From contig CP064974.1 in assembly GCA_016699385.1 (NCBI GenBank), forward strand, positions 532,466-596,465: a stretch of DNA of 64,000 nt, in the 5' to 3' direction. This document shows positions 5,401 to 56,765 of this stretch, piece by piece (position 1 is the first letter of the stretch; every line of letters begins with the position of its first letter). Source of the DNA: Candidatus Moraniibacteriota bacterium (GTDB lineage Bacteria > Patescibacteriota > Minisyncoccia > Moranbacterales > UBA1568). The position numbers were made by a program, and so were the translations under genes. The notes under the pieces are model-generated. The model saw nothing but the letters and a program-made list of their open reading frames with translations, was not told the origin of the DNA and did no database searches.

Positions 5401-6654
5401 CTATTCCCCGCGTATCGCTCGTATCGGATCTATCTTCGACGCCTTCCATGCCGGATAGGTTCCAAAGACAATACCCGAAAGAAAGGCAAACGCAATGGCA
5501 AAAAGGAGATTCCGAAGCGAGAATACGAATGCAAGCGGAAAGCCAAGTGCCGCAATTGCTGAGAAAGCAAAGAAGATAATCACAAACGACAGCACGATGC
5601 CAATCACACCACCCGCAATCGCTACCAAGACTGCCTCGACCAAAAACTGCCGCAAAATATCCCGCGGTCGTGCCCCAACCGCCTTGCGCAATCCAATCTC
5701 CGGCGTCCGCTCCGCAACCGAAACAAACATCACATTCATAATACCCACCCCGCCAACGACGAGCGATATCGAAGCAAGTGCCACCAAGAGAATCCGTACC
5801 GCTCCAAACACCGACTGCACAAGTGTCTGTGCTTCCTTGATCGTCGTCACTGCATAGTCTTCTTGCCCTGCCTTCCGAATATCGTGCCGATCCCGCAAGA
5901 GATCATTTATTTCTCGAGCCGTCTCATCGACACGCGACCCATCCTGCGTCGCCACCGTAATGAAGCTCACGTAGTCAACGCCGAGAATTTTCTTCTGCAT
6001 GGTACGAATCGGAATATACGCGAAATCGTCGAAATTGACAAACCCCGTCGAACCCCGCTCCTTGATCACTCCTGCAACGCGGTATCGCTGACCCTTAATT
6101 GTAATCGACTGCCCCACCGCCGAACTCTCTCCGAAAAAAGTTTTCTTCACTCCCGCACCAAGTACAACTGTCTGCGCAATACCCCGATCATCGGCTGTTG
6201 AATAGAAACTTCCTTCAGTCAATACGATGTTTTTGTCTATCTGTGGTGCACCTGCCGTCGCCCCAAGGAGAAAAACTTGCTTATTTGTTTCCTGTCGACT
6301 CGCGAGCGCCTGTCCAATAATGCCTGCATAGTACCCCAACACATTCGGCAAACGAGCAATGGCATCCGCATCATCGAGCGTAAGTGTCGTCACTTGTATA
6401 CCCTGTGCAATACCCGCCGCATTCCCCGATGAATTTCGCCCCGCCGAGGGAACTTTTACCTCAACCTGAATACTATTGTCCCCAAAGCTTTTCACCTGAT
6501 CAAGGACAAATCCTTCAACTGCATCCCCCGCCGACGCCACCGTCATGATGGCGATAGTACCGATAATAACACCAGAGAGTGTGAGAAGCGTCCTTCCGGC
6601 ATTCGCCGTAAGACTCTTGACCGCAAAAGAAAGCGAAAGAAGAAGCTCATGCAT
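5401..6654 (-). CDS. ABC transporter permease, MacB/FtsX family
   Basis: N-terminal TM, MacB-type periplasmic domain, and C-terminal FtsX 4-TM region (GLRKAVGARPRDILRQFLVEA...). Confidence 0.85.
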   Translation of the reverse strand: MHELLLSLSFAVKSLTANAGRTLLTLSGVIIGTIAIMTVASAGDAVEGFVLDQVKSFGDNSIQVEVKVPSAGRNSSGNAAGIAQGIQVTTLTLDDADAIARLPNVLGYYAGIIGQALASRQETNKQVFLLGATAGAPQIDKNIVLTEGSFYSTADDRGIAQTVVLGAGVKKTFFGESSAVGQSITIKGQRYRVAGVIKERGSTGFVNFDDFAYIPIRTMQKKILGVDYVSFITVATQDGSRVDETAREINDLLRDRHDIRKAGQEDYAVTTIKEAQTLVQSVFGAVRILLVALASISLVVGGVGIMNVMFVSVAERTPEIGLRKAVGARPRDILRQFLVEAVLVAIAGGVIGIVLSFVIIFFAFSAIAALGFPLAFVFSLRNLLFAIAFAFLSGIVFGTYPAWKASKIDPIRAIRGE

Positions 6655-51981: not shown

Positions 51982-52069
51982 CTTGTTGTTTTGGCACCCA
52001 CTTATTCAAGTGGCCGTTTTAGGCAATTCCCAGATATGCGCGCGTTTTTCGCGAGCATGTCTTTTTGAA

Positions 52070-52537
52070 TCAGTCATAGCTCGCCCAAAATACCTTACAG
52101 CGATACTCCCATTCCTCCTGATCGCAGTGAATCTCTTCGGCTGTCATGCCCTGTTCTCTTACTCGAAATACGAGCTCTTTCTTCGTAGAGTTCCGCGCCA
52201 TATCGCCATAGAATTCATACACCAATGCTCGCATCTCTTCGATAAAGCCCTCCGGAAGAGGGATACAGCGTTCCGCTTCGTGGGTAATCTTCCGAAGAAG
52301 AGTGAAGCGATACATATTGTTCACGTTGAGTTCCTTCTTCAAATCCGCTTTACCCACCAAGTCGTATTTGCGAAGGAGGTCATCAAACGATTCAGAGAAA
52401 TCTTTGCTCCTTGGTTCCTCCCTGCCTTTAGAAGAAAATAAGAGGCAAACAAGAATCATAACTCCCAGAACGACTCCTGTACTAAAAAGGGTAAGTACGC
52501 CTGATACCATACCTGCTGTCAAAGAACTTTCATTCAT
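52070..52537 (-). CDS. small single-TM protein, candidate retron effector
   Basis: ATG at 52537 with SD ggaggt at 8-nt spacing; the ORF-track start at 52546 is a TTG. TM GVLTLFSTGVVLGVMILVCLLF, then a cytoplasmic domain of about 110 aa. The next gene on the same strand after the RT, 124 nt downstream. Confidence 0.5.
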   Translation of the reverse strand: MNESSLTAGMVSGVLTLFSTGVVLGVMILVCLLFSSKGREEPRSKDFSESFDDLLRKYDLVGKADLKKELNVNNMYRFTLLRKITHEAERCIPLPEGFIEEMRALVYEFYGDMARNSTKKELVFRVREQGMTAEEIHCDQEEWEYRCKVFWASYD

Positions 52538-52669
52538 GATGACCAACCTCCATATACGTTGCGATCCTCTTCTTTATGGTCTTTCCAAAAGAGCCTGTCA
52601 AGCTTGCCGTATTTCTTCCAAAGCCCTGACACAGTACCTTCGTGGAGAAGGAAGTCAAATGTCCATTTG

Positions 52670-53560
52670 CTAAAGAAATCTCTCCATGGTCACATTGTAA
52701 AAATTTTCCAACATCAGACCAGCCTCCCTATTGATGCTTTTTACAAAGCTAACCTTCCCTTGTACGCTAAGACGGTGTTCTGGCACAAAGTAACACAAGC
52801 CTTCCTCGATTTCACATTTTACGCTCTCAATGAAGAAGTCACTCAAATCAATTTTATCATTTACAACCAAGCCAGTAACATGTTGCGTTTCTGTACGATG
52901 AGCGATATGTTTCTTCTCCATGTTGAGCAAAAACCCTTCATGCCGAATAATTCCATCAACCATCCCTTTTCGGTAAGCACCTTCCACTTCCCTTCCGCCA
53001 GAAATAGTTATATCATCGAAGAAACGTGTATACCCAGCATTGATCCCCTTGCAAAGATCCCACAGTTTTGTGTCCAAATCCAACGCAACTACATTCGAAA
53101 GAAAGGGGCTAGTAGGCGCCCCTTGCGGAAGCTGATTTTCATATGTAGCTATTCTGACAATCCAACCCAGAGACTTCTGCGAGATATTAAGCCTTCTTCT
53201 TAAAGCTTTCAGCACTCTTGTGTTATGAATACTGGGGAAAAAGTCTTTTATGTCATAATTCAAAACAAACTCTTTGCCAACATGGGGCTTGGCATTTGTA
53301 ACAATTGAACGTCTGTCAACACCACCGTGAACGCACGGTAACAAAGAAATGCTTTTCTTCAGAAAAGTAAGAATTTTCTTTTGCAACAACCGCAAGTCTT
53401 TTCTTGGAATATTCAAAATCCTCTCGCTCATCCCTCCACTGCTTTTTTTCTTTGGAATTTTAATCTCGATATATAACCGTTTAATATTCGAGTAGAAAAA
53501 ACTTGCTTGTTTTTCGTCCAAGCCTAAGTTAAGCAAAAATTGTCTGTGTTCCGGATACAT
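52670..53560 (-). CDS. retron-type reverse transcriptase
   Basis: 296 aa. Block similarity to the Ec86 RT: IPKKKSSGGMSERILNIP (motif 0), NAKPHVGKEFVLNYDIKDFFPSI vs Ec86 NATPHIGANFILNIDLEDFFPSL, LPQGAPTSPFLSNV (motif 4), YTRFFDDITIS (YxDD-type, here FFDD), and TQHVTGLVVN (the retron VTG motif). No maturase/X or endonuclease domain. Confidence 0.85.
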   Translation of the reverse strand: MYPEHRQFLLNLGLDEKQASFFYSNIKRLYIEIKIPKKKSSGGMSERILNIPRKDLRLLQKKILTFLKKSISLLPCVHGGVDRRSIVTNAKPHVGKEFVLNYDIKDFFPSIHNTRVLKALRRRLNISQKSLGWIVRIATYENQLPQGAPTSPFLSNVVALDLDTKLWDLCKGINAGYTRFFDDITISGGREVEGAYRKGMVDGIIRHEGFLLNMEKKHIAHRTETQHVTGLVVNDKIDLSDFFIESVKCEIEEGLCYFVPEHRLSVQGKVSFVKSINREAGLMLENFYNVTMERFL

Positions 53561-53756
53561 GCGTTAAAAAGAAAACTGTCGCACAAGCAACAGTTTTAAG
53601 ATAGTAGGAAAATAAGTTCCGCAGAAACTCAAAAAGAGTTCTAACCTCCTGAACAATGTCTTTCAAAGACACCTGAAATGAGAATCGACACTTTCTTTCT
53701 TTGCTTTTCCTTGTAACTTTTGTGTACGTTTCTATTTCCGTTTTCAGTGTTGCCAT
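53529..53756 (-). CDS. small ORF (75 aa) with perfect 14-nt Shine-Dalgarno, upstream of and overlapping RT start
   Basis: ATG at 53756, preceded at 2-nt spacing by CUAGAAAGGAGGUG, which is fully complementary to the 16S 3' tail CACCUCCUUUCUAG. Encodes MATLKTEIETYTKVTRKSKERKCRF... It may instead be non-coding msr/msd sequence. Confidence 0.35.
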   Translation of the reverse strand: MATLKTEIETYTKVTRKSKERKCRFSFQVSLKDIVQEVRTLFEFLRNLFSYYLKTVACATVFFLTHVSGTQTIFA

Positions 53757-53810
53757 ACGCCACCTCCTTTCTAGTAAAATGCGGCGCGGAACTAAACCTA
53801 AACTTCTATC
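53600..53810 (-). ncRNA. candidate retron msr-msd region (tentative a1/a2 inverted repeats)
   Basis: Minus-sense a1 at 53810-53786 (GAUAGAAGUUUAGGUUUAGUUCCGC, followed by G) and a2 at 53622-53600 (GCGGAACUUAUUUUCCUACUAUC) can pair over 8+4+5 bp about 165 nt apart. Internal small hairpins are present. An AU stem plus U-tract (53572-53597) sits just before the RT ATG. The statistical support is weak. Confidence 0.25.
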
Positions 53811-53927
53811 AGGAGGAGAAATATACTCTTTCATCTTTAAAATCCGCAACCAACATTCTCTCAAAAAAAGAAAACTGGAATATTTTTAGATTTCAGACTA
53901 AAAATAAGTATACACCCATCAAGAAGG

Positions 53928-53955
53928 AAAAAAGGGGTTATCTTTAAAACAACCC
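53928..53955 (-). terminator. intrinsic terminator about 150 nt downstream of 16S rRNA
   Basis: Minus-sense GGGUUGUUU-UAA-AGAUAACCC stem followed by CUUUUUU. Confidence 0.5.
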
Positions 53956-53971
53956 ATAGAAAGGAGAAAGG

Positions 53972-54004
53972 TTGCTTTTGCAATCCTCTGCGGTCAATCC
54001 AACG
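53972..54004 (-). promoter_or_regulatory. 16S trailer half of leader-trailer processing stem (RNase III-type)
   Basis: Trailer UUGGAUUGACCGCAGAGGAUUGCAA pairs with leader UUGCAAUUUUUUGCGGUCAAUCCAA (plus 56666-56692): 14 bp, a 4-nt internal loop, then 7 bp. Confidence 0.6.
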
Positions 54005-54241
54005 TCTCAAGATGCTTTGGTATCTCTTTGGCGAACCAAAGAAATAACGACCATATGTGTGTCATTGTCTGTCTTGCGACAAACAACTTGTTCACCATTA
54101 CTCCCTAGAAAGGAGGTGATTCATCCACAGCTTCCGCTACGGATGCCTTGTTACGACTTCACCCTTATTACCAACCCCACCGTCGTCCCCGATATAAAAC
54201 GGGGCCTTCTGGTATTGCCGGCTCTCTTGGTGTGACGGGCG

Positions 54242-55123
54242 ATTATCTTCGTAAAACTCCGAATTGATGTTCCCATCGTGCCTGCGGATTTCCCGCACAC
54301 GACGAGCTCTAATGCATCGTTTGCTTAAGTGCGTAGATACTACGCAATCCTTCATCTGTGAAATGGAGATTCTTGCGAATCATTTCGAAGATGACACAAA
54401 ACGTTTCAAAGTCACTTTTCTTTGAGCGTAACCTCAAAGCATTTCTTTTGAAGAATGGAATAATAACACGTTCCAGATGTTCTCTATTGGACACTTCATA
54501 GCGATAACATTGCTGATGATTGGCACGTCTATCTTTTTGAAAATACACATTGCCACATCCGAAATAGTCTTTCAGTTCATCGAGGACTTCTTTGTCTCGC
54601 TCGATCAACTTGAGAAAAAATCTCGGCTCAACTTTCGTCCGTCGCTTGACGCGCTTGTCCGAATCGGGATTTTTCACATATACTGTGAAGCTTCCCTCTC
54701 CATCCACAAGACCAACGATATATTCTGGTGTTATCTTTTCCATATGCATTGGAGTGAACCCTTCGTCCTGATAGAGATACCAGAAGTTACTATGATTCAG
54801 CTGACTTCTTACGCCGCGTAAGTTCCATTATTCAATGCTATTGTGATACAACATTGAAACAGCGTAAGATCTCCCGGGGTCATATATCTTTCTCTTCCTG
54901 ACATTCTGAAAACGCTTTGTATTGTATCTTCCCTCTGCTCACCACCTATCCAAAGGTCGATACCGTTTTCCGCCTTTCGACGGATAATCAGACTGCCATT
55001 TGCTTCCGAATCCTTCGCCATTTCCCTCGCGAGAAACGACTATTCTTCAGCTACGCCCCAGTTGACGAATCGGGGGGAGAGATTTGAACTCTCTAGAAAT
55101 ATATACTGCCCGGCGCTTTTATT
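54242..55123 (-). mobile_element. intron in 16S rRNA (probable group I) carrying LAGLIDADG homing endonuclease ORF
   Basis: Exon 1 ends CTTGTACTCAC (plus 55124-55134) and exon 2 resumes CGCCCGTCACACC (plus up to 54241). Joining them restores the universal CTTGTACACACCGCCCGTCACACC with a single A to T difference. The intron is 882 nt. Confidence 0.7.
54309..54749 (-). CDS. LAGLIDADG homing endonuclease (intron-encoded)
   Basis: YIVGLVDGEGSF is the LAGLIDADG motif. 146 aa, single-motif type, entirely inside the 16S intron. Confidence 0.85.
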   Translation of the reverse strand: MHMEKITPEYIVGLVDGEGSFTVYVKNPDSDKRVKRRTKVEPRFFLKLIERDKEVLDELKDYFGCGNVYFQKDRRANHQQCYRYEVSNREHLERVIIPFFKRNALRLRSKKSDFETFCVIFEMIRKNLHFTDEGLRSIYALKQTMH

Positions 55124-55189
55124 GTGAGTACAAGATCCGAGAACGTATTCACCGTGACTTGGCTGATTCACGATTACTAGTGATTCCGG

Positions 55190-55228
<39 letters not shown>

Positions 55229-56765
55229 GCCGGTTTTTTGGGATTAGCTCCGTCTCGCGACTTGGCAACCCTTTATACCGGCCATTGTAGCACGTGTGTC
55301 GCCCAGGGTGTCAGAGGGCCATGCTGATCTGACGTCATCCCCTCCTTCCTCCCCGCACCCTTTTCCCGATTATTTTCGGTAAACAGCAACAAAGAAATAC
55401 TGCCAAAGGCAACGTCTCTTCATTCTGCTCAGAAAAAAGGTGCGGGGCGGTCTCGCGTGATACGTGTAACACGCGACAGGGGTTGCGCTCGTTTCCCGAC
55501 TTAACGGAACATCTTACGACACGAGCTGACGACGACCATGCAGCACCTGGTCTAGCGGCCTCGAAGGACTTCTTATTTCTAAGATCTCCAGCTAGATTTC
55601 AAACCCTGGTGAGGTTCCTCGGTTATCGTCGAATTAAACCACATGCTCCACCACTTGTGCGGATCCCCGTCTATTCCTTTGAGTTTTAAGCTTGCGCTCG
55701 TACTTCCCAGGCGGCACACTTAACGCGTTAGCTACGGCACGGAAGGGGTCGATTCCTCCCATACCTAGTGTGCATCGTTTAGGGCGTGGACTACTGGGGT
55801 ATCTAATCCCATTCGCTCCCCACGCTTTCGTGGCTCAGTGTCAGATCGGTGCCAACCAGCTGCCTTCGCCTTTGGTGTTCTTCACGATATCAACGCATTT
55901 CACTACTACACCGTGAATTCCACTGGTCTCTCACCGCCTCAAGTCGTGCCGTTTCAAATGCAGTTCTTCGATTGAGTCGAAGGATTTGACATCTGACTAA
56001 CACGACCACCTACCCACCCTTTACGCCCAATAAATCCGGATAACGCTTGAGGTCTCTGTATTACCGCTACTGCTGGCACAGAGTTAGTAACCTCTTATTC
56101 TCCAGGTACCGTCATCGAAATTCTTCCCTGAAAAAAGTAGTTTACGACCCGAGGGCCTTCATCCTACACGCGGCATCGCTCGTTCAGGCTTTCGCCCATT
56201 GACGAATATTCTCGACTGCAGCCTCCCGTAGGAGTTTGGGCAGTGTCTCAGTCCCAATGTTGGGGGCCATGCTCTCACACCCCCTACCCGTCAGAGCCTT
56301 GGTAGGCTTTTACCCCACCAACTAGCTGATAGGACGCAGGCTGCTCCTCAAGCGATAAATCTTTACTCCGTAGAGCACATCGTGTATTAGCTTGTCTTTC
56401 GACAAATTATTCACGACTTGAGGGAACATTCCTACGTATTACTAACCCGTTTGCCGTGGGTCTAAACCCACTCGACTTGCATGCCTTATCCATGCCGCCA
56501 GCGTTCATCCTGAGCTAGGATCAAACTCTCAATAAAGATGATATTCCGAGAGCATCCGGTAAACCGAACTCCACCACTCATCTTATAATGGCAGATAAAC
56601 TCTCGAGAAGTTGCTTCCCTTCCCCTTGCGAAGATAAAGAAGACTTAAATAGATCCATGTAACTATTGGATTGACCGCAAAAAATTGCAATCATACTTTC
56701 GCAAATTGTTAAGGGGCTCTTGGCGATAAAAAAGAAGGCGGAAAGCTTTCTTCCTTCGCATGTGC

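Follow-up and report, generated by a model that had tools for sequence, protein, structure and literature searches.

A structured RNA with an embedded small-protein gene precedes a retron-type reverse transcriptase next to the 16S rRNA gene in Candidate Phyla Radiation bacteria

The 64,000-nucleotide stretch of a Candidatus Moraniibacteriota bacterium genome analysed here (contig CP064974.1 of assembly GCA_016699385.1, positions 532,466 to 596,465; hereafter, the window) carries on its minus strand a gene for a retron-type reverse transcriptase (RT), the product of which is identical to a protein annotated in a Candidatus Moraniibacteriota genome. A first-pass annotation of the window had described the region directly upstream of this gene as a candidate msr-msd non-coding RNA (ncRNA) delimited by two inverted repeats, a1 and a2. 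We compared this region with ten further distinct sequences (given L numbers below), which together with the window represent about seven lineages of the Candidate Phyla Radiation (CPR) with an RT identity of 39–76%. Read along the minus strand, the module consists of the 3′ end of the 16S rRNA gene, a pyrimidine motif CUCCUUUCUA, a hairpin, a1, a Shine-Dalgarno (SD) sequence, a small open reading frame (ORF) that contains a2, a second hairpin with a U-tract, and the RT gene. The sequences annotated earlier, i.e. a1, the G at position 53785, a2, the internal hairpins and the AU-rich hairpin, are all present on this strand at the positions assigned to them. The features are as follows:

54106–54118, minus strand: 3′ tail of the 16S rRNA gene, CACCUCCUUUCUA; a1 follows 296 nt downstream
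53957–53966, minus strand: anti-SD-like pyrimidine motif CUCCUUUCUA, which complements the SD at 53773–53764
53935–53955, minus strand: terminator-like hairpin directly after the CUCCUUUCUA motif, found by a terminator scan
53786–53810, minus strand: a1, the 5′ arm of the long-range helix, with the conserved core stack AGUUCCGC(G) at 53793–53785
53785, minus strand: candidate branching G of the first-pass annotation
53761–53773, minus strand: extended SD UAGAAAGGAGGUG, perfectly complementary over 13 nt to the 16S 3′ tail
53529–53756, minus strand: small ORF of 75 amino acids, with a 32-nt overlap with the RT start
53673–53655 and 53642–53623, minus strand: two small internal hairpins
53600–53622, minus strand: a2, the 3′ arm of the long-range helix, with the core (U)GCGGAACU at 53623–53615, located within the small ORF (codons L-R-N)
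53572–53597, minus strand: terminator-like hairpin of 11 bp with a 4-nt loop, followed by a U-tract (53571–53561); the hairpin ends 11 nt 5′ of the RT ATG
52670–53560, minus strand: retron-type RT of 296 amino acids, without an SD of its own

The small ORF is a real conserved gene, which is under purifying selection in its own reading frame only. An ORF of 44–79 amino acids is open before the RT in all 11 of these AU-rich loci, and its ATG invariably follows, at a distance of 4–8 nt, a near-invariant UAGAAAGGAGGUG that carries two changes at most. This sequence complements the final 13 nt of the 16S gene exactly and, the 16S gene itself aside, is the sole match of at least 11 nt to the complement of the 16S tail in the entire window. 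The small ORFs of the window and its close relative L001 display 14 synonymous and 7 non-synonymous differences, with 13 of the 21 differences at third codon positions, and the ratio of non-synonymous to synonymous polymorphism (pN/pS) is 0.14 in the ORF frame versus 0.85 and 0.75 in the two off-frames. Other pairs of loci gave values of 0.31–0.67 (0.14–0.67 for all pairs) compared to 0.63–1.58 in the other two frames. The position of the stop codon ranges among the loci from 47 nt within the RT gene to 3 nt short of its ATG, and no RT gene of the 11 loci has an SD, as had been remarked for the window, a layout that points to translational coupling. The overlap between the candidate ncRNA and this ORF, also remarked earlier, is genuine: the ORF (53756–53529) possesses an SD, and a2 covers approximately codons 45–52. 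The encoded peptides are basic; their N-terminal part is charged and their C-terminal part hydrophobic or amphipathic. They have no match in Pfam, PADLOC or NCBIfam. We also observed that codons 6–9 of the small ORF (window positions ~53725–53737, minus strand) repeat AAUAGAAA of the SD region in the form GGAAAUAGAAACG, and that a purine-rich repeat similar to GGAAAUAGAAACG is present in most lineages.

The AU-rich hairpin and U-tract previously noted before the RT are a genuine conserved structure. The hairpin (53572–53597), which is flagged by a terminator scan, is separated from the RT ATG at 53560 by CUUUUUAACGC. In MAFFT alignment A2, 97.5% of the hairpin cells pair and 6 of the 11 base pairs have changed on both sides (for example, CUGUUGC/GCGACAG versus CUGCCGC/GCGGCAG). 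None of 500 shuffles reached the observed values, and controls in which the position was slid displayed 37–70% pairing. The small ORF reads the hairpin as T-V-A-C-A-T-V-F in the window and in another frame, as L-L-R-K-R-Q-F-F, in L008, and the frame in L170 also differs from that of the window; the constraint therefore acts on the RNA and not on the peptide. The hairpin contains G+C, it is followed by the U-tract and the combination is conserved, so that by sequence it is terminator-like, a predicted terminator or attenuator. Two next-best homologues of the RT, neither of which is adjacent to a 16S gene, lie beyond the family compared here. The architecture is absent from one of them (P0016), and the other (P0015), a more distant CPR RT with 37% identity, keeps only the hairpin and U-tract, located directly before its start codon (L187, 2940–3000). 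The presence of this element outside the 16S-linked family suggests that it is older than the family.

The a1/a2 helix is not significant in the window sequence alone. Its core is a perfect 8-nt inverted repeat (53786–53793/53615–53622), which a G53785–U53623 wobble extends to 9 bp, but a total of 25 inverted repeats, this one included, were detected within 700 nt, and fold z-scores are only −1.5 and −1.8, the former (−1.48) from a fold of the a1–a2 interval that recovers the helix. The earlier caution that such a repeat may be due to chance was thus right for a single sequence. Across the loci, the a1/a2 core is a genuine covarying long-range RNA helix, far beyond chance. An uninterrupted stack of 8–11 bp occupies a constant position in all 11 loci and has a lineage-specific sequence each time: its 5′ strand ends 11–17 nt before the SD motif UAGAAAGG and its 3′ strand ends 13–21 nt before the terminal hairpin in every lineage. 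The arms (5′/3′) are as follows:

Window: AGUUCCGCG / UGCGGAACU
L008: UGUUUCGC / GCGAAACA
L170: GGAUGUUUCG / CGGAACAUCC
L177: AAGAGGCU / AGCCUCUU
L180: GAGGUCGA / UCGACCUC
L181: GGAGGUCUGU / GCGGACCUCU
L183: AAAUAAGAGAG / CUCUCUUAUUU

As MAFFT places the a1 and a2 arms of different lineages out of register, a covariance model was abandoned in favor of the extraction of stacks from each lineage and a register-free permutation test, in which the best energy of a duplex formed by two segments, one upstream of the SD and the other upstream of the hairpin, was computed for seven lineage representatives. The cognate assignment of arms was the best of all 5040 lineage permutations, ahead of the other 5039, under three segment definitions; in one example, the cognate sum was −145.9 kcal/mol compared to a permutation mean of −101.1 kcal/mol (standard deviation 10.8). 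Independent minimum-energy folds of single sequences contain the helix in 9 of the 11 loci. A compensatory change in L008 (GUUUCGC/GCGAAAC) is accomplished by a synonymous CGG to CGA substitution in the small ORF. Of the interrupted helix of 8+4+5 bp proposed in the first-pass annotation, the 8-bp core is thus the part that covaries, whereas the outer segments of 4 and 5 bp are already absent from the closest relatives, L001 and L007. The two internal hairpins (53673–53655 and 53642–53623) are predicted in the window, L001 and L007, where one-sided changes keep the pairing, and are not recognizable in more distant lineages.

These results bear on the original proposal that the region is a canonical, non-coding msr-msd RNA, in which a1 and a2 frame the molecule, G53785 is the branching nucleotide and the 75-aa ORF is a frame left open by chance. 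The retron-type RT immediately downstream and the covariation of a1 with a2 agree with it, as does the G that follows or ends the a1 stack in 4 of the 11 loci (the window, L001, L007 and L008). The other lineages have U, A or C there, with a G located 1–3 nt away or absent, and the window G can itself pair with U53623; across the lineages of the family, the a1 stack is followed by CCGC, GCCA, UGCC, AGGG, CAGC, CAAU and AUUU. An open frame in every one of 11 AU-rich loci that is accompanied by conservation of the SD and its spacing, a third-position bias of substitutions, a low pN/pS in its own frame only and a stop tied to the RT start, is not what chance would leave, and we consider the fully non-coding version highly unlikely. 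What stands of the proposal is a structured, retron-associated RNA; what does not is its non-coding character.

Several lines of comparison identify the RT as a retron-type enzyme, in agreement with the first-pass annotation. Pfam assigns it to RVT_1, PADLOC retron RT models match it with E-values of 1e-66 to 1e-40 (best, 1.2e-66), and NCBIfam retron models match its full length at 1e-50 to 1e-53 (retron_St85_RT, 3.5e-53), although below the family cutoffs. The top matches in the PDB are all retron RTs, with Ec86 being the first (3e-29), and the motifs NAxxH (TNAKPH), LPQGAPTSP, R[YF]FDD (RFFDD) and VTG (VTGLVVN) are all found. The scores of the PADLOC models RT-Protease_XI, RT_III-A, RT-TIR_XII, RT_II-A and RT_VI, however, all lie within about 50 bits of each other for the window RT, and eight relatives likewise have no clear best type. 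The RT_VI model covers the full length with 165–228 bits, and the XI or III-A models score equally well or higher (204–236 bits; 224 and 212 bits for the window). Because the motifs and solved relatives are those of retrons and the profile scores single out no type, the RT belongs to the retron clade and fits none of the 13 named retron types clearly by these profile tests. Its own family (P0001–P0011, 39–76% identity) is small and tight, with the score falling off beyond it. The catalytic box (residues 180–183, YTRFFDD) reads FFDD in the window clade (P0001–P0003) and YFDD in the remaining family, with both aspartates intact.

The gene downstream of the RT is unrelated among the loci. It differs even between the window (52070–52546), L001 (1445–1915) and L007 (1602–2153), although the RTs are 75% identical. 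The window gene encodes a membrane-anchored protein of 158 aa, and the genes in this position at other loci encode UCP014422-like or UCP032817-like proteins. Such a gene is unlikely to be a dedicated effector, and the small ORF is therefore the sole conserved partner of the RT.

Our preferred interpretation, to which we assign a probability of roughly 55%, is that the flagged region is a structured 5′ hybrid RNA, not purely non-coding, of an unclassified CPR lineage of retron-type RTs. The long-range helix formed by the a1/a2 core would close a domain that contains an unusually strong ribosome-binding site (RBS) together with the first ~45 codons of the small protein, and the ORF would continue through a2 and the terminator-like hairpin to stop at or over the SD-less start of the RT gene. 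By analogy with Type VI retrons, the RT may bind the folded RNA and use it either as a template, from a putative priming site and with multicopy single-stranded DNA (msDNA) as the presumed product, or as a scaffold, while the same RNA would be the mRNA of a small, probably toxic effector. Folding and translation would be mutually exclusive, because a ribosome on the small ORF must melt both a2 and the terminator hairpin. The hairpin and U-tract would end most transcripts, producing an abundant short RNA, and ribosomes that translate the small ORF would carry expression on into the RT gene.

The region could alternatively be an ordinary regulatory mRNA leader, in which the small ORF encodes a leader peptide, the hairpin and U-tract attenuate RT expression, and the long-range helix only modulates translation or stability, as does the 5′–3′ fold-back of type I toxin mRNAs such as hok, in an RNA that is not reverse transcribed. 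The course of the ORF, which passes through the covarying, terminator-like hairpin and stops at the start of an RT gene without an SD, fits this explanation, and the peptide is small, basic and hydrophobic, akin to type I toxins. Purifying selection on the peptide, however, is not expected of a mere leader peptide, the module holds no other conserved non-coding element, and every characterised RT of the retron clade uses an adjacent structured RNA (PMC7736814). We regard a leader of this kind as quite unlikely.

The SD participates in a second potential pairing. The motif CUCCUUUCUA (53966–53957), which resembles the 16S tail, forms a 10-nt perfect inverted repeat with the SD (53773–53764). 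All lineages have such a motif immediately 5′ of a hairpin, which occupies the same position throughout, and whenever the interval between the 16S end and the SD is folded, the minimum-energy structure contains the pairing of the motif with the SD. As this helix is interleaved with a1/a2, the two either exclude each other or form a pseudoknot. In L170 and L174, an A-to-G change in the SD is matched by a U-to-C change in the motif, with their 16S tail unchanged, and, in L008, the displaced native copy of the 16S flank does not contain the motif, which is island-specific. The true retron ncRNA might accordingly lie upstream, with the motif and the SD as its terminal inverted repeats, which would enclose the terminator-like hairpin, variable msd-like hairpins and the a1 of the first-pass annotation. 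Besides the perfect, universally kept complement and the paired change, this arrangement gains from a G within 0–2 nt after the motif in every lineage, from long variable hairpins between the motif and a1 in L177/L179 and L170/L174, and from its analogy with the description of Retron-Sen3. The SD, however, is near-invariant, since it must match the 16S tail, so that covariation is not properly testable, and the SD change of L181 (AA to UU) is uncompensated in the motif; the evidence for this helix is weaker for these two reasons. Furthermore, only ~33 nt, without an msd-like stem, separate the hairpin from a1 in L001 and L007, and the hairpin that follows the motif in the window resembles a true terminator, which would leave the motif outside a transcript from the retron's own promoter. 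We find an upstream ncRNA conceivable but unlikely.

In the same interval, the distance from the terminator-like hairpin to a1 is about 80 nt longer in the window (53811–53924) than in its close relatives L001 and L007, and the additional stretch includes a perfect 9-bp hairpin (53906–53898/53889–53881); as the relatives do without it, this stretch is dispensable for the module. A σ70 promoter scan returned no minus-strand match, and hand-picked −35/−10 candidates after the 53935–53955 hairpin are inconsistent among lineages, so that we claim no transcription start.

The 16S rRNA gene lies close upstream of the module in nearly all loci. In the window, it is matched by Rfam at 56536–55077, its 3′ part resumes after an insert, and it ends in ...GGAUGAAUCACCUCCUUUCUA at 54118–54106. 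The 16S 3′ end is located 260–940 nt upstream across the family, with the exception of L177, where the module resides at a non-rRNA site and no 16S gene stands upstream. The host 16S genes are only 79–86% identical to each other, and the arrangement thus spans deep CPR diversity. As a negative control, at least 160 unrelated retron loci (at most 42% RT identity) were collected by conserved-RT-peptide scans of genome and metagenome collections, and neither a 16S end nor the SD motif precedes the RT in any of the 160 listed.

The module is apparently carried by an island whose integration site is the 3′ end of the 16S gene. L008 has a direct repeat of the 16S tail and ~150–185 nt of its 3′ flank 4.7 kb downstream (1081–1260 and 5794–5980). 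The two copies, which are identical over the first 41 nt, flank the small ORF, the RT and two other genes, and their similarity stops just before the anti-SD-like motif. Homology between L177 (2490–2520) and L179 starts exactly at AUCACCUCCUUUCUA, and a tyrosine integrase follows directly after the RT in both (L177, 3940–4839; L179, 3501–4400). No distal repeat of the 16S flank was found in the window itself. Integration at this site can explain the adjacency to 16S without a functional link to rRNA.

The 13-nt anti-16S sequence leaves such a functional link possible. It would then be more than a strong SD, and the retron RNA might read out or act on the 16S tail: by sensing free 30S subunits or the translation status, it would switch between translation of the peptide and reverse transcription or, more radically, the 13 nt would be a primer-binding site at which the RT extends the 16S 3′ end, with the anti-SD mimic as a competitor in cis. 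We hold a ribosome-linked retron to be very unlikely; were it true, the position beside the 16S gene would be functional and not only a preference of integration.

The proximity to 16S also raises the idea that the long-range helix is an RNase III-type processing stem, which frees the downstream RNA from the 16S precursor in the manner of the stems that flank rRNA. The module does follow a 16S gene, and a strand of the 16S processing stem lies ~170 nt upstream. Yet a2 is inside a conserved ORF, where cleavage would cut the mRNA off from the RT gene, a terminator-like hairpin stands between the 16S flank and a1, and L177 keeps the helix without an upstream 16S gene. We rate this explanation as barely credible. 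The 16S precursor has its own processing stem, formed by the leader sequence UUGCAAUUUUUUGCGGUCAAUCC (~56690–56712) and the 3′ flank GGAUUGACCGCAGAGGAUUGCAA (53978–54000), and a related box, AACCGCAAAAGAUUGUGA, is kept in other lineages. The anti-SD-like motif was considered as part of this stem and rejected: the leader pairs with 54000–53978, the motif has no comparable partner in the leader, and its absence from the native flank copy of L008 also contradicts this assignment.

The 16S gene of the window contains an insertion of ~860 nt near its 3′ end (54150–55077, minus strand; ORF 54309–54749; 54758–54843), which encodes a LAGLIDADG endonuclease and has a weak match to group II intron D1-D4 (21.8 bits). 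This match is above threshold in L179 and L183, and the 16S gene of L170 has no insertion. The metagenome-assembled genomes from which L177/L178 (P0007) and L179 (P0008) were taken are labelled Bathyarchaeia archaeon and Anaerolineaceae bacterium. L179 nevertheless carries a bacterial 16S gene that is 79–83% identical to those of the other CPR loci, and mis-binning is probable.

A number of observations weigh against a hybrid RNA that serves the RT. Rfam scans of 52000–55200, both at gathering thresholds and at E≤10, returned no retron or other RNA family except rRNA and weak noise. The first-pass annotation had placed a G directly after a1 and several small hairpins in the interval; no invariant branching G was found across the 11 loci, and their folds contain no long msd-type stem between a1 and a2 that is conserved across lineages; the interval shrinks to ~85 nt and is AU-rich in L177 and L179. 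The true helix for closing or priming could instead be the competing one, in which the anti-SD-like motif pairs with the SD. A search of a protein database for homologues of the small protein retrieved only its own close relatives and no homology to anything named. Finally, the loci represent only about seven independent lineages, so that the statistics for individual pairs are thin.

If the hybrid-RNA interpretation is correct, the design in which one RNA is both the partner of an RT and the mRNA of a toxin would not be confined to Type VI retrons of Proteobacteria and Bacteroidetes, and tiny CPR genomes would contain a stripped-down, two-gene form of it, with a small ORF and an RT but neither a helix-turn-helix (HTH) gene nor a separate effector. 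The module would then constitute a minimal system for the trade-off between reverse transcription and translation on one RNA, and small ORFs within 'ncRNA' regions would become candidate effectors in retrons that seemingly lack one.

Among non-retron systems, the mRNAs of hok-family type I toxins, which have a 5′–3′ fold-back, and leader-peptide attenuators offer a comparison. The module shares with them a small basic and hydrophobic ORF in an mRNA with a long-range helix, and a terminator hairpin within the ORF. Unlike in hok-type mRNAs, the ORF is coupled both physically and evolutionarily to a retron-type RT, and no antisense RNA gene is evident. With the canonical msr-msd RNA of Retron-Eco1/Ec86, the locus has in common the NAxxH, YxDD-type and VTG motifs of the RT and an upstream structured RNA with inverted repeats ~165 nt apart. 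The enclosed region is protein-coding here, however, it has neither an invariant branching G nor a conserved long msd stem, and no separate conserved effector gene is present.

The closest systems are the hybrid RNA (hyRNA) of Retron-Vpa2 and the extended ncRNA/small-protein transcript of Retron-Sen3. The hyRNA of Type VI retrons combines the RT template with the RBS and coding sequence of a small toxic protein, its 3′ end folds back via inverted repeats that resemble a1/a2, and msDNA relieves the repression of toxin translation (bioRxiv 10.1101/2025.10.22.683967). The small-protein gene is flanked by a second long-range pairing, its coding sequence has covarying pairs, and ~78% of Type VI systems carry a Cro/C1-type HTH gene upstream of or overlapping the RT (bioRxiv 10.64898/2026.04.27.721009). 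Their small proteins are 75–79 aa long (PMC7736814).

The CPR module departs from this scheme in several respects. Two of these count against our interpretation: no Cro/C1 HTH gene is found between the small ORF and the RT, nor was one called in the homologous loci, and the model of Type VI, which is RT clade 3, is not the one with which the RT scores highest. In addition, the small ORF abuts or overlaps the RT start, a terminator-like hairpin stands at the end of the ORF, no separate msr-msd arm of ~280 nt is evident 5′ of the RBS (only 11–17 nt separate the 5′ arm from the SD), the RBS, which complements the 16S tail over 13 nt, is not obviously sequestered in the a1/a2 conformation, and the module is fixed beside the 16S gene in CPR bacteria. 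The Levybacteria Type VI retron ncRNA (Mestre-729), the only CPR Type VI retron tested in the retron census, bears no resemblance to it.

A structured RNA with an embedded small-protein gene before an RT has so far been described only for this one recently studied class of anti-phage retrons. As in the RNAs of Vpa2 and Sen3, (i) the structured RNA that precedes the retron-clade RT also holds an RBS and the gene of a ~75-aa protein with a hydrophobic C-terminal part, (ii) a long-range inverted repeat akin to a1/a2 closes the RNA around this gene, and (iii) a stem-loop stands just upstream of the 5′ repeat, here in several lineages. In analogy with the small-protein clusters cl2075, cl2760 and cl3272, the small protein is embedded in a transcript closed by inverted repeats. 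While it is not a demonstrated member of Type VI, the CPR module may well work in the way that a Type VI hybrid RNA does.

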